Origin: Pseudonocardiaceae bacterium
Lineage (GTDB): Bacteria; Actinomycetota; Actinomycetes; Mycobacteriales; Pseudonocardiaceae
NCBI GenBank assembly: GCA_036270375.1
Contig: DATBCR010000714.1
Span: forward strand, 1 to 37,417
Length of the DNA: 37,417 nucleotides
Direction: 5' to 3'
Of the stretch, positions 23,949-30,439 are shown piece after piece (the first letter of the stretch is position 1; every line of letters begins with the position of its first letter). Below the pieces are notes generated by a model. It did no database searches. It was not told where the DNA came from and was given only the letters and a program-made list of their open reading frames with translations. A program made the translations under genes and the position numbers.

Positions 23949-25124
23949 TTATGCGCTGACCGCCAGTGGGTCTGTTCGGTCCAGTTTGCCGGAGAGCAGG
24001 CCCTGATACAGGTGCAGCTTCTGCATGGTGCGGGTGCCCTCCATGAACTCGACACCGCGTGCGTCGCGCACCAGCCGATCCAGCGCCGGATGTTCGAGCC
24101 GTGCCGTCGGGCCGAAGAAGCCGCACGCCGCAACGGTAATCTCCTCGGCCAGCCGGCACGCGCTTGCCTTGGCCGCCGACGCGAGATAACCGCCGGACGG
24201 GTGCCGATCAACTGCGGCGGCCGCGTGCCGCACGAGTTCCCGTACGCCCTCGATTCGGGCGCCCATCAGGTCGATCCGGTCCTGTTCCGCTTTGTCCGGT
24301 CGGCTGCGGTTGGCCAGGACGTACTCGTAGGCGGCCCGTGCGACGCCGACCGCGACCGCAGCTACTGCCGGTCGGAGCCGGTCGAACGTGCGCAGGCACG
24401 CCCACATGCCACGCCTCGTCTGTGACAGGTGCCGGCCGAGCAAACCGTTGTCCGGCACGGGGACGGCGTCCATCGTCAGTGCGGCCAGTTGCAGTCCGCG
24501 CAATCCGACCGACTCGATCGGCACCGCGCTGAATCCCGGTGACGCGGTGTCCAGCAGTACCGCCGAAACGCCTAGCGGTCCCGGTGCCGAGCGTGCGAAC
24601 ACGACTGCCAGCGACGCTCGCGCGCCGTTGCCGATGTAGCGTTTCGTGCCGGTGAGTAGATAACCGCCCGGTGCTTGGGCCAGGCTGGTTCGCATCGCGG
24701 CCGCGTCCGAGCCGCATTCCGGTTCGGTGAGTGCGAAACACGTCCACGTCGGCGCGGTGAGCAATGCGTGGTAGTAGCGGCGTTTCTGTTCCGTGTCGGC
24801 GAGCAGGTCGACGAGCACGCCGGACATGCTCGCGCCGGGACAGGCGAGCAGCACGGCCGCGTCACCGCAGGCGAACTCCTCCATCAGCACGACGCGTTCC
24901 ACCGCGGTCATCGCCGTGAACCGGTGGCCCTTGATCCGCTCGACCGGCGGGTCGTACTCGGGCGGGATCAGCAGCGTTGACATGAACCGCACGCCGGGCA
25001 GGTTCGTGTACCGCCGGATCAGGTCCGGGTCGACGGCGAGCCGTGGCCCGAGCGCGCGGAAATCCGCCGCCCACTCCCGTGTCTGCCGCTGCAGCGCGCG
25101 CAGCCGGTGGTCCAGTTCGAACAT
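23949..25124 (-). CDS. Acyl-CoA/acyl-ACP dehydrogenase (full-length ACAD fold)
   Basis: 391 aa from MFELDHRLRAL. Motifs include FALTEPECGSDAAAM, GTKRYIGNG and RGVEFMEGTRTMQKL (catalytic Glu region). CCGGAGGTGGG lies upstream. The start overlaps the stop of the upstream gene (TGATG). Confidence 0.9.
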   Translation of the reverse strand: MFELDHRLRALQRQTREWAADFRALGPRLAVDPDLIRRYTNLPGVRFMSTLLIPPEYDPPVERIKGHRFTAMTAVERVVLMEEFACGDAAVLLACPGASMSGVLVDLLADTEQKRRYYHALLTAPTWTCFALTEPECGSDAAAMRTSLAQAPGGYLLTGTKRYIGNGARASLAVVFARSAPGPLGVSAVLLDTASPGFSAVPIESVGLRGLQLAALTMDAVPVPDNGLLGRHLSQTRRGMWACLRTFDRLRPAVAAVAVGVARAAYEYVLANRSRPDKAEQDRIDLMGARIEGVRELVRHAAAAVDRHPSGGYLASAAKASACRLAEEITVAACGFFGPTARLEHPALDRLVRDARGVEFMEGTRTMQKLHLYQGLLSGKLDRTDPLAVSA

Positions 25125-25696
25125 CAGCCCACCTCCGGACGGTACGCGGCGGCCAGCGCCTCGGATATCGTCACCTGCCGGCCGGCGCCGGTGAACCCGC
25201 TCGCGCCGAGCAGGCGCAGTGCCCGAATGTCCACTTCGGACAGACTGTCGTGCAGCCACGCCACCATCGGCGGTGCCAGGTGTCTCGCGCCGCTGAGCAC
25301 TGCCCTGATCTCCAACTGTCCGATCAGGACATCGGCCACGGTGTCCTGCACCAGTTGCCGTTGCAGCAGCGGCGATTCCGCCGGTCCGCGCCCACCAAGA
25401 TGCTCGACGCACGCGGCCAGCAGTCGCTCGGACAGGCCCAACCGCAGCCGCAGCACGCCGAGTGTCCACCCGTCCGGCAGCGGACCGGTCGGCCGGCCGC
25501 GTGCCAACAGCACGGACTCGCCGATCGATTCCGCGTCCACCGGGCGGTCGGTGTCCGAGTCCGCGACGACCGCGTAACCGGACGGCCCGAACGGCACCCC
25601 GTCCCACACCGAGTCCGCACGCAGCCGGGCCAGCGCGGCGGCCGCACCCGACTCCCGTGCCACGTCGACAACCGAATCCGCGAACACGGCAGTCAT
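25124..25696 (-). CDS. ACAD C-terminal-domain-only protein (about 190 aa), probable partner subunit of the adjacent dehydrogenase
   Basis: From MTAVFADSVV (GGAGGTGAA upstream). LGLSERLLAACVEHLGGRGPAESPLLQRQLVQDTVADVLIGQLEIRAVL resembles the alpha-helical C-terminal ACAD domain. There is no N-terminal or beta-barrel part. It has ATGA overlap with the upstream gene. Confidence 0.6.
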   Translation of the reverse strand: MTAVFADSVVDVARESGAAAALARLRADSVWDGVPFGPSGYAVVADSDTDRPVDAESIGESVLLARGRPTGPLPDGWTLGVLRLRLGLSERLLAACVEHLGGRGPAESPLLQRQLVQDTVADVLIGQLEIRAVLSGARHLAPPMVAWLHDSLSEVDIRALRLLGASGFTGAGRQVTISEALAAAYRPEVG

Positions 25697-26520
25697 CGAT
25701 TCACCTCCTCGACCGCGACACACACCGAAAGGTCCCCGGCCGCCGGGTCGTGGTCGACCCACACCGCGGGCCGTCGCGCCACCGCCCAACCAGCCGTACA
25801 CGGCAGGCCGGCCGGTGCCCGGTCGGACACCGGCAGCCGGCCGGGCAGCGCGCCCACCTTCGGACCCGCGACCACCCACGGCGCCGCCAACTCCGGCACC
25901 AGCGCGTCGACAGCGCCCGAAAGCTCTATTGTGGACACGTTGGCCCGCTGCCCGACGAACAGTTCGCCCGACCCTCGGCCGAGCACCAGCGCCACGGCCG
26001 CGTCGCCGGACAACTCGCCCGGCGGCACCGGATACGGCAGCGTCGCCTGGTCCATCGCCAGCACCAGCACGTTGGCAAGACCGTGCCGGCCGGCGAGGTC
26101 GCCGGCCAGCCGCAGCGCCGTGTACGTCGCCGCCGGACCCTGCTCCGTCACCGCGAACAGCAGCGGCCGTTCACACAGCGCGTGGTTGGCGTACGTCGCC
26201 GCCGACCGCCACGGGTCCAGATCCGGCGCCGCCGTCGCCAGTACGACGAGGTCGACGTCGGGTGCGCCGAGATCGGTCAGCATCGCGGCCGCCATCTCGG
26301 CATATGTCGTGCCGTCGGCCTGCCACTGCCCGGCTGGCATGCCCGGCACGTCGAACGCCGAGGTGAGATCGGCGAAGTACCGGGTGATGGCGGGACCGCC
26401 GACTCGCGAGCGGGGCTCGGTGAATCGGCGGTACCGCACGTCCGCCAACCGCAACGGCAGCTCGATCAGGCCGCCGGTGCGGGTCGTCGTCGCCAGTCGG
26501 GCAGGGGCTACCCGGTACAC
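25693..26520 (-). CDS. KASIII-like thiolase-fold protein lacking the nucleophilic Cys and the His/Asn half
   Basis: DVDLVVLATAAPDL...PLLFAVTEQGPAATYTALRLAGDLAGRHG..NVLVLAMD...GDAAVALVL aligns with the FabH N-terminal half (IGLIVVATTS...AFDVAAACAGFTYAL...GDGAGAAVL). The Cys position is occupied by Gln or Gly. It is only 275 aa and has a GTG start. Confidence 0.55.
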   Translation of the reverse strand: MYRVAPARLATTTRTGGLIELPLRLADVRYRRFTEPRSRVGGPAITRYFADLTSAFDVPGMPAGQWQADGTTYAEMAAAMLTDLGAPDVDLVVLATAAPDLDPWRSAATYANHALCERPLLFAVTEQGPAATYTALRLAGDLAGRHGLANVLVLAMDQATLPYPVPPGELSGDAAVALVLGRGSGELFVGQRANVSTIELSGAVDALVPELAAPWVVAGPKVGALPGRLPVSDRAPAGLPCTAGWAVARRPAVWVDHDPAAGDLSVCVAVEEVNR

Positions 26521-29495: not shown

Positions 29496-29512
29496 GGGTC
29501 GCCCTCTCGGGA

Positions 29513-30439
29513 TCAGTGGCGCAGCAGCATCGCGGAGAATGTCGAGCCGAGACCGACCGACACCATCAGGTAGAACTGGCCGGACCGCAGCAGGCCGAGA
29601 TCGGCGGCGGTGCGGTAGTTGATGAACGGGTCGGCGCAGAAGCAGTGCCCGTAGCGGGGCACGTTGTCCAGGAACAGTTTCCTCGGATCGATGCCGAGCT
29701 GTTTCGCACTGCGGGTCCACGAGATCCGGTTCACGTTGTGCGGCAGCACGAGGTCCACATCGGACAGTTCAACACCGGCGGCGTCGACGGCGCCACCGAT
29801 GACGGCGGTCAGGCCGTCGGCGTAGATGCTCCGGAACCACGCCGCCGTCTCCGCCGACATCACGAACTCGCCGGACGGCAGCCCGTAGGAGCGGGACGCG
29901 AAGCCGAGCATCTCGTCGCTCTCGCCGTGTGCCCCGACGAGTACAGCAGCGGTGCCCTCGCCGAGCACGCCGACGTCCGGAATCCACCCGACGTCCGGCG
30001 TGAACACCTTCTCCCCCACCAGAACCAGTGCCAGCGCGGCCGGGTCGCCGTCCGCGGCCAGCATCGTGCCGACCAGGTCGACGGCCAGCAGGCCGGACGC
30101 GCACGCATGGTCGGTCACCGCGAACGTCGTCGCGTGATCCAGGCGCAGCTCCCGCCTTACCTGGCCCAACGGCCGCAACGGATAGGGCGCGGCGGCGGGT
30201 ACGGTACGGGCGCGCACCACGTACCGGACCCGGTCCTCCTGCCCGGCCAGTTCGGCCAGTTTGCCGGCGGCGGCGATCAGCAGTTCGGCCTCGGACGCGT
30301 CGGACCGACAGATCCGGTCCAGCCCGTAGAGCTTGCCGAACCGCCGCACCTGCTGATCGGACAGGCCCAGTTCGGCGGCCAATGCCGCCAACGGAACCGT
30401 CTCGGGCACGTGCGTCGCCACCGCCAGCAGCGCGGTCAT
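29513..30439 (-). CDS. KASIII-like (FabH family) ketosynthase/acyltransferase with active-site Cys
   Basis: 308 aa from MTALLAVATHVPE. FAVTDHACASGLLAV carries the Cys, and LVLPHNVNRISW the His. The usual Asn position reads YGHCFCAD, possibly His. It ends LGSTFSAMLLRH. ATGA overlap with the upstream FAD-enzyme gene. Confidence 0.8.
   Translation of the reverse strand: MTALLAVATHVPETVPLAALAAELGLSDQQVRRFGKLYGLDRICRSDASEAELLIAAAGKLAELAGQEDRVRYVVRARTVPAAAPYPLRPLGQVRRELRLDHATTFAVTDHACASGLLAVDLVGTMLAADGDPAALALVLVGEKVFTPDVGWIPDVGVLGEGTAAVLVGAHGESDEMLGFASRSYGLPSGEFVMSAETAAWFRSIYADGLTAVIGGAVDAAGVELSDVDLVLPHNVNRISWTRSAKQLGIDPRKLFLDNVPRYGHCFCADPFINYRTAADLGLLRSGQFYLMVSVGLGSTFSAMLLRH

Follow-up and report, generated by a model that had tools for sequence, protein, structure and literature searches.

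The olenamidonins of Streptomyces olivaceus and autucedine derive from gene clusters (ole and aut) that are called identical in the available text of PMC11204786. Their products are cyclic peptides of L-Phe, D- and L-2,3-diaminopropionate (Dpr, hereafter Dap) and Gly that carry dehydro-β-alanine (Dba) and a fatty acyl chain, which in the ole products is an ordinary branched or straight C7-C13 fatty acyl (PMC11204786, available text). The seven genes oleH to oleN and their aut counterparts were published in 2022 and 2024 as "lipochain-linked dehydro-β-alanine synthetases" (PMC11204786, citing Zhang et al., Org. Lett. 2022, 24:5535), and OleH/AutS is said in the same text to ligate acyl-CoAs to Dba on an acyl carrier protein (ACP). 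A further cluster, etm of S. achromogenes, is tied in there solely through the homologue column of the ole Table S6. Here, we describe a locus of this kind in a Pseudonocardiaceae bacterium (contig DATBCR010000714.1 of assembly GCA_036270375.1, from soil metagenome JGI 3300036834), whose whole 37,417-nucleotide stretch we call the window. Seven minus-strand genes at 23949-30439 very probably form the starter-unit cassette of an enamidonin/autucedine/olenamidonin-type lipopeptide cluster, producing an N-acyl-Dba thioester on a dedicated ACP by aspartate loading, decarboxylation, N-acylation, desaturation and transfer to a non-ribosomal peptide synthetase (NRPS). An original prediction, made from the letters of this segment, had recognized the cassette but could not assign it to a described pathway. 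Seven collinear homologues, OleH-OleN/aut, are assigned to N-acyl-dehydro-β-alanine formation (PMC11204786), so the gene set is already characterized in a known cluster at the level of a published assignment. The observation is thus correct but largely ordinary, a further copy of a described gene set, and what is new relative to ole and aut is limited to a set of probable acyl-chain genes upstream of the coordinates first considered.

Comparable chemistry is known from the bolagladins of Burkholderia gladioli, in which Asp is held on a free-standing ACP, the BtrK-like enzyme BolN forms β-alanyl-ACP, N-acylation is proposed for BolM or BolP (KASIII homologue; KASIII, β-ketoacyl-ACP synthase III), and the acyl-CoA dehydrogenase (ACAD) BolQ gives the N-acyl-Dba starter for the NRPS (PMC7756342). 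Deletion of bolQ yields dihydro-bolagladins, and the enamidonins of Streptomyces were the sole other Dba-containing products reported when that work appeared (PMC7756342). The window would share each of these features, from carrier-bound Asp, a BtrK-like decarboxylase and KASIII N-acylation to ACAD desaturation and an N-acyl-Dba starter for an NRPS. However, the bolagladin loader is BolO, a VinN-like adenylating enzyme of the ANL superfamily, whereas the window encodes an ATP-grasp ligase. No stand-alone AMP-binding gene was found in the window by Pfam, and its AMP-binding domains are those of the NRPS adenylation (A) domains. This agrees with the earlier suggestion that an ATP-grasp enzyme replaces the adenylating one, and makes the window analogous to the bolagladin pathway rather than a member of it. 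The bolagladin chain is moreover citrate-primed, and the available text of PMC7756342 mentions no counterparts of two small proteins, of 275 and 190 amino acids (aa), that belong to the cassette described here.

ATP-grasp loading of a carrier protein is itself not new. In butirosin biosynthesis, BtrJ loads Glu on BtrI and BtrK is the L-glutamyl-[BtrI ACP] decarboxylase (PMC7183216; PMC11350588). For closthioamide, in vitro work showed that the ATP-grasp enzyme CtaD attaches L-Asp to CtaE; the pyridoxal phosphate (PLP) enzyme CtaF then forms β-Ala-S-CtaE and refuses free Asp (PMC7183216). Both resemble the window in combining an ATP-grasp enzyme, a free-standing carrier and a BtrK-family decarboxylase, a likeness that for the ATP-grasp enzymes refers to described or predicted function. 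They differ in that their ATP-grasp enzymes catalyze repeated additions, which result in a γ-Glu protecting group or a β-Ala trimer with no KASIII or ACAD step to follow, whereas a single unit would be N-acylated and desaturated here. The vicenistatin, fluvirucin and incednine pathways (VinN/VinL/VinO) also use PLP-dependent decarboxylation of a carrier-tethered (methyl)aspartate, but they involve ANL enzymes, an aminoacyl protecting step, a trans-acyltransferase (trans-AT), a peptidase and a type I polyketide synthase (PKS) as acceptor, where the window has an NRPS. Pfam detected no such ANL loader, protecting ligase, trans-AT, peptidase or type I PKS among the window's open reading frames (ORFs).

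A seven-gene cassette and its counterpart in the ole cluster

Genes were picked by third-position GC (GC3) in this roughly 70% GC stretch, and the seven cassette genes have in-frame GC3 values of 0.85-0.91. They are listed in order of transcription, with the amino-acid identity to the corresponding Ole protein from pairwise BLASTP against the S. olivaceus locus.

29513-30439, minus strand: KASIII-like protein, 308 aa (Pfam ACP_syn_III_C); OleH/AutS homologue, 51%
28116-29495, minus strand: ATP-grasp ligase, 459 aa (Pfam PreAtp-grasp, PF18604, and ATP-grasp families); OleI homologue, 61%
26807-28114, minus strand: PLP decarboxylase, 435 aa (Pfam Orn_Arg_deC_N/Orn_DAP_Arg_deC); OleJ homologue, 63%
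26525-26803, minus strand: ACP2, 92 aa (Pfam PP-binding); OleK homologue, 49%
25693-26520, minus strand: degenerate KASIII-fold protein, 275 aa (AlphaFold and Foldseek); OleL homologue, 33%
25124-25696, minus strand: truncated ACAD-like protein, 190 aa (AlphaFold and Foldseek); OleM homologue, 30%
23949-25124, minus strand: ACAD, 391 aa (Pfam Acyl-CoA_dh_M/_1); OleN homologue, 57%

Sizes and order agree with Table S6 of the ole study, which gives OleH as a 3-oxoacyl-ACP synthase of 309 aa, OleI as an ATP-grasp protein of 480, OleJ as a decarboxylase of 427, OleK as an ACP of 92, OleL as a hypothetical protein of 296, OleM as a short "ACAD" of 234 and OleN as an ACAD of 387 aa (PMC11204786, available text). 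The likeness extends to the surroundings: both clusters have SbnA/SbnB-type Dap synthesis, MbtH, a histidine kinase and response regulator, a Streptomyces antibiotic regulatory protein (SARP), an ABC transporter and an NRPS of two genes and four modules, the first of which has a matching Dap code. Unlike ole, the window has, immediately upstream of the cassette and in translational coupling with it, genes for a second ACP (ACP1), a ketosynthase (KS), a chain-length-factor (CLF)-like partner, a ketoreductase (KR) and a CrtI-like enzyme, shows no phosphopantetheinyl transferase (PPTase) gene, carries a toxin/immunity pair after the ACAD gene, and has a fourth A-domain code that is Phe-like.

The original prediction had treated the segment as one functional unit held together by gaps of 1-4 nt and ATGA/TGATG overlaps. 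This description is accurate for five junctions, with gaps of 1 nt (ATP-grasp/decarboxylase), 3 nt (decarboxylase/ACP2) and 4 nt (ACP2/275-aa) and overlaps by ATGA (275-aa/190-aa) and TGATG (190-aa/ACAD), but not for the KASIII-like/ATP-grasp junction, which reads as a 17-nt gap with a ribosome-binding site. All members of the gene set named at the time are present, yet the KASIII-like gene comes first and not fourth, as had been stated. The genes lie at the coordinates given, but the unit does not end there: the start of the KASIII-like gene overlaps, again by ATGA, the stop of the upstream CrtI-like FAD gene, so the unit extends beyond 30439, and the ACP1, KS, CLF and KR genes precede the CrtI-like gene on the same strand.

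The unit is also conserved as such. The ATP-grasp ligase has hundreds of relatives at about 60% identity, and an alignment search located relatives in 362 species-representative actinomycete genomes, with Amycolatopsis and other Pseudonocardiaceae as the closest named relatives. Eighty fetched loci and four fetched earlier were analyzed, 78 of which had enough flanking DNA to be scored. In 69 of the 78, the KASIII, decarboxylase and 275-aa genes lie beside the ATP-grasp gene, and 68 have the ACP gene as well, an arrangement that is far from chance. This bears out the proposed functional unit and supplies the co-occurrence survey that had been called for. Two patterns within it are informative: the KASIII-like and 275-aa genes occur together in all 69 core loci, and the 190-aa and ACAD genes are both present in 58 of the 78 loci and both absent from 18, with the 190-aa gene alone in two. 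These patterns point to two pairs, each of an enzyme and a "pseudo-enzyme" (KASIII/pseudo-KASIII and ACAD/pseudo-ACAD), and the latter suggests that the desaturation module is optional.

A predicted route to an N-acyl-dehydro-β-alanine starter unit

In the proposed pathway, the ATP-grasp ligase would convert the side-chain carboxyl group of L-aspartate to an acyl phosphate and then attach it to holo-ACP2 as a thioester. This prediction draws on the BtrJ and CtaD precedents and on the C3 unit that the homologous cluster builds into its products; in a sequence search of the PDB, the ligase itself gave a sole and weak match (8ynd, E = 9e-4). The next enzyme is better placed. Its best PDB matches are to BtrK (7ru7/2j66) at 286 bits, against at most 168 bits for diaminopimelate (DAP) decarboxylases; it aligns with BtrK end to end and retains the PLP lysine (SLKCN versus SLKAN). 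By its sequence it is therefore a BtrK-like PLP-dependent aminoacyl-ACP decarboxylase and not an enzyme of the lysine pathway, in keeping with the earlier idea that a DAP-decarboxylase-family enzyme works here on a carrier-tethered amino acid. It would remove the α-carboxyl group to leave β-alanyl-S-ACP2, its homology being clear and its substrate presumed. ACP2, like ACP1, has its phosphopantetheinyl serine (in ACP2 within LGLDS), and the catalytic residues of ACP2, the decarboxylase, the ACAD and the KASIII-like enzyme are all intact. Cispentacin-like chemistry was considered for this carrier and rejected: AmcB, the best NCBIfam match of ACP2, reaches just 36 bits where the cutoff is 80, and the other genes show no fit to an Amc-like set.

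BtrK, the closest solved structure to the decarboxylase, acts on γ-Glu-S-BtrI, and the specificity of the ATP-grasp ligase is not readable from its sequence. One could therefore imagine a butirosin-like route in which L-glutamate is loaded by its γ-carboxyl, decarboxylated to 4-aminobutyryl-S-ACP and turned into an N-acyl-4-aminobut-2-enoyl unit. We regard this as very improbable: OleI and OleJ, with which the ligase and the decarboxylase share 61% and 63% identity, belong to a cluster that makes a product with the C3 unit Dba, the BtrK-like BolN and the decarboxylase CtaF act on Asp-derived thioesters, and the Dap genes and NRPS codes of the window match the enamidonin scaffold. A further version, in which a butirosin-like Glu-to-GABA starter is extended by KASIII to an ω-amino polyene that possibly cyclizes to a pyrroline, was dropped once the ole/aut cluster and its Dba products had been found.

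For the aspartate-derived unit, the following step is predicted to be N-acylation. By analogy with the role proposed for AutS/OleH (PMC11204786, available text) and BolM/BolP (PMC7756342, available text), the KASIII-like enzyme would take the acyl group on its Cys and, with the 275-aa partner, transfer it to the β-amino group on ACP2, joining chain and amino acid by an amide bond. Aligned to FabH structures, the KASIII-like protein has Cys (DHACASG), His (PHNVN) and, in place of the Asn of the FabH-type Cys-His-Asn triad, a second His (YGHCF), a replacement seen both in the window protein and in all four aligned relatives. Such a Cys-His-His set appears typical of the OleH-like KASIII family, in which a FabH-sized protein is proposed to make an amide. 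The same set of residues is found in condensing KAS I/II enzymes.

The latter resemblance, together with the KS/CLF/KR set directly upstream, could be taken in favor of the original prediction of a primer that is extended: the aminoacyl-ACP would undergo Claisen condensation by the KASIII-like enzyme, elongation by KS/CLF and desaturation by the ACAD to give an amino-terminated chain. We find this scarcely credible. In characterized relatives the unit becomes an N-acylated C3 enamide and never a chain primer, and the related KASIII homologues are proposed to N-acylate β-alanine without forming a C-C bond (PMC11204786, PMC7756342). The cassette is, furthermore, tied to an NRPS starter condensation domain, and neither the KS nor the CLF of the window has a match within 10 kb in 48 of the 69 core loci, so that the cassette works without an elongating synthase.

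The predicted N-acyltransferase probably does not act alone. The 275-aa protein has no Pfam or NCBIfam match; homologues of it and of the 190-aa protein were gathered and aligned before structures were predicted. Its AlphaFold model, a confident one like that of the 190-aa protein (predicted local distance difference test, pLDDT, 87), resembles KASIII/thiolase-fold proteins exclusively, with Foldseek probability 1.0 to FabH, CorB, MxnB, AbyA1 and PqsBC, and the alignment shows Cys, His and Asn all missing at the FabH active-site positions. That this is a catalytically dead thiolase-fold protein had thus been rightly seen, but "half-KASIII" does not quite fit: the model shows a compact, whole fold with a shrunken C-terminal half. 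Given its strict co-occurrence with the KASIII-like gene, the 275-aa protein is probably a non-catalytic partner of that enzyme, most plausibly in a heterodimer.

The ACAD, which retains its catalytic Glu (MEGT) in alignment with PDB structures, is predicted to oxidize the Cα-Cβ bond of the (N-acyl-)β-alanyl-S-ACP to the dehydro-β-alanyl enamide, a step that has been shown genetically for its analogue BolQ and that would place desaturation on the ACP, as foreseen. The 190-aa protein that accompanies it has no Pfam or NCBIfam match; its model (pLDDT 91) matches solely ACADs and ACAD-fold flavoenzymes in Foldseek, among them Tcur3481-3483, a heteromeric steroid ACAD, and ColB1, a carrier-tethered dehydrogenase. 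The fold and the joint presence and absence of the two genes agree with the proposal that the short protein goes with the full ACAD, and it is probably a partner subunit in a heteromer.

The order of acylation and desaturation deserves closer consideration. The ole study implies that desaturation precedes acylation (PMC11204786, available text); in this autucedine order, the ACAD pair would first convert β-alanyl-S-ACP to free-amine Dba-S-ACP, which the KASIII-like enzyme would then N-acylate. This sequence of events seems unlikely to us. A free 3-aminoacryloyl thioester is an enamine that, on chemical reasoning, should readily tautomerize and hydrolyze, and N-acylated dihydro products build up in the ΔbolQ mutant, so prior desaturation is not required for acylation (PMC7756342). 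In addition, the ACAD pair is missing from ten loci of the S. rimosus type that retain KASIII, ATP-grasp, decarboxylase, ACP and 275-aa genes, so the KASIII-like enzyme presumably acts on β-alanyl-ACP there. By analogy, bolagladin genetics and these ACAD-less cassettes point to N-acylation before desaturation.

The finished N-acyl-Dba unit would be passed by the starter condensation (C) domain of NRPS1 to the first Dap, after which four modules would join D-Dap, L-Dap, Gly and an aromatic residue, and the thioesterase (TE) domain would cyclize the chain. The genes concerned are the following (T, thiolation; E, epimerization).

20651-21982, minus strand: SbnB ORF (NCBIfam TIGR03944, 418 bits; cutoff 327)
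19632-20636, minus strand: SbnA (NCBIfam TIGR03945, 379 bits; cutoff 350)
11839-19704, minus strand: NRPS1, C-A-T-E-C-A-T, with clear epimerase motifs (Pfam, motifs)
4729-11808, minus strand: NRPS2, C-A-T-C-A-T-TE (Pfam, motifs)

SbnA and SbnB both score above curated cutoffs, which by sequence makes them the joint suppliers of L-2,3-diaminopropionate; since the TIGR03944 model matches residues 108-433 of the SbnB ORF, the true start of that gene lies further downstream. The A-domain codes, to be taken as provisional, were read off against a GrsA fragment that itself returns DAWTIAAICK and with which the conserved motifs line up. The two codes of NRPS1, DIWEVTADDK and DIWEATADDK, are Dap-type and differ from the first A domain of OleQ (DVWEVTADDK) at one and two of ten positions, respectively; those of NRPS2 are Gly-like (DIAQIGVIWK) and Phe/aromatic-like (DAWVAALVWK). 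The peptide so predicted (D-Dap, L-Dap, Gly, aromatic) agrees with the backbone of the enamidonins. The longest NRPS1 ORF begins 73 nt upstream of the SbnA stop (19632-19704), either a gene overlap or a sign of an internal true start; a similar SbnA/NRPS overlap of about 40 nt is present in a syntenic Amycolatopsis metagenome-assembled genome (MAG; locus L007).

Several points weigh against this assignment. Our view of the locus is built from sequence, structural models and analogy, and we infer the choice of Asp over Glu by the ATP-grasp ligase only from the product of the cluster that holds its 61%-identical homologue. The text on ole suggests acylation after Dba formation and the bolagladin genetics suggests acylation first. 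The fourth A-domain code resembles that for Phe without being a textbook one. Finally, we see no dehydratase in the window that would go with the KS/CLF/KR set, and the acyl chain is hence not predictable.

Cassette variants and the remaining genes of the window

What surrounds the cassette varies among the 69 core loci: a closely related NRPS occurs in 30, in most cases with SbnA/B; KS or CLF-type genes occur in 19; and in 26, there is no match to NRPS, Dap-synthesis or type II KS/CLF genes within 10 kb. Full cassettes of this last, context-free type may make small N-acyl-(dehydro)-β-alanine metabolites. In S. canus (two loci), a full cassette has an acyl-AMP ligase, two ACADs of about 570 aa and an ACP upstream and a PPTase downstream.

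Shorter versions exist as well. Five-gene cassettes consisting of KASIII, ATP-grasp, decarboxylase, ACP and pseudo-KASIII, with a PPTase gene usually next and the short ACAD-like and ACAD genes missing, are found in six loci of the S. rimosus type (L003, L026, L028, L050, L056, L059) and in Nocardia (L055, L058, L076). Those of the S. rimosus type still adjoin SbnA/B and an NRPS. Such cassettes predict saturated N-acyl-β-alanine analogues of the enamidonins.

Nine Amycolatopsis loci (L060, L064, L068, L069, L070, L078, L080, L081, L084; the genes around 6500-13500) feature an ATP-grasp gene about 61% identical to that of the window, directly after an ACP-KS-CLF-KR set and before SbnB-SbnA, with no KASIII, decarboxylase, second ACP or 275-aa protein within 10 kb. 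They account for nine of the 18 loci lacking both 190-aa and ACAD genes and indicate that this ligase family is also used without the decarboxylation module, perhaps on a fatty-acid-synthase-like ACP or on Dap.

The other genes of the window include regulators, transport genes and a toxin/immunity pair.

35658-36578, plus strand: SARP-family activator (BTAD and Trans_reg_C; Pfam), matching OleF by function (ole Table S6)
23078-23779, minus strand: DddA-like/SCP1.201-type double-stranded-DNA deaminase toxin (PF14428, 112 bits)
22653-23087, minus strand: Imm1 immunity protein (PF14430, 92 bits)
21848-22510, plus strand: LuxR-type response regulator (Pfam), OleO homologue, 65%
3313-4416, minus strand: ABC-2 permease (Pfam)
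1887-3239, minus strand: histidine kinase (Pfam), 49% to OleA
489-716, minus strand: MbtH (Pfam), 54% to OleC
1-537, minus strand: ABC ATPase (Pfam)

Between the MbtH and histidine kinase genes lies a 402-codon open frame (704-1912, minus strand, GC3 0.83) with neither a Pfam nor an NCBIfam match. In the ole cluster, an MMPL transporter occupies this position (PMC11204786, available text). The toxin and Imm1 genes occupy 22653-23779 on the minus strand, between the ACAD and response regulator genes. This segment has a GC content of 0.66-0.67 against about 0.71, and the same interval in the syntenic Amycolatopsis MAG spans just some 100 nt, so that the pair looks like an insertion into the cluster.

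Probable acyl-chain genes upstream and their significance

The set that distinguishes the window from ole and aut lies directly upstream of the KASIII-like gene; from ACP1 to KR, its genes resemble those of type II fatty acid synthases or PKSs.

35322-35573, minus strand: ACP1 (Pfam/NCBIfam)
34007-35284/35437, minus strand: KS with intact Cys-His-His (Pfam/NCBIfam, motifs)
32868-33926, minus strand: CLF-like partner without the Cys (Pfam/NCBIfam, motifs)
32128-32871, minus strand: FabG-type KR (Pfam/NCBIfam)
30436-32112, minus strand: CrtI/phytoene-desaturase-family FAD oxidoreductase (Pfam, NCBIfam)

The complete ACP-KS-CLF-KR-CrtI set occurs in just three of the core loci, L007, L011 (Amycolatopsis minnesotensis JCM 14545) and L035, which are also the only ones in which a CrtI-like gene adjoins the cassette; the ole cluster has none. 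In L007, synteny with the window extends from ACP1 as far as the NRPS, the mapped genes being 39-80% identical. The KS/CLF and CrtI-like genes also brought to mind cinnamoyl-lipopeptide-type clusters, a comparison that would concern this upstream set and not the seven-gene cassette. The acyl donor is probably made by this set rather than drawn from the fatty-acyl-CoA pool, and the CrtI-like enzyme possibly tailors the chain. We tentatively propose, with the balance somewhat against it, that the window and these three Amycolatopsis clusters encode enamidonin-type lipopeptides with an unusual chain, which the dedicated ACP1-KS-CLF-KR-CrtI enzymes build and the KASIII/pseudo-KASIII heterodimer passes directly from ACP1 to β-alanyl- or Dba-ACP2. 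If true, a thiolase-fold enzyme with a Cys-His-His site would catalyze an amide-forming transfer from one ACP to another, and the chain would be unsaturated or otherwise of a kind unseen in known members of the family.

Lipopeptides of the enamidonin family act against Gram-positive bacteria, among them multidrug-resistant enterococci with minimum inhibitory concentrations of 1.56-6.25 µg/mL (PMC11204786, available text), and chain length appears to affect their potency. New analogues could come from a member that carries an acyl-chain factory of its own. The two "dead" partner proteins, conserved and unexplained in the literature examined, pose a modest but well-defined question of enzymology. 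More broadly, the cassette is widespread, and the 26 core loci that have no NRPS, Dap-synthesis or KS/CLF match nearby suggest that N-acyl-(dehydro)-β-alanine chemistry may be more common than the few known products imply.

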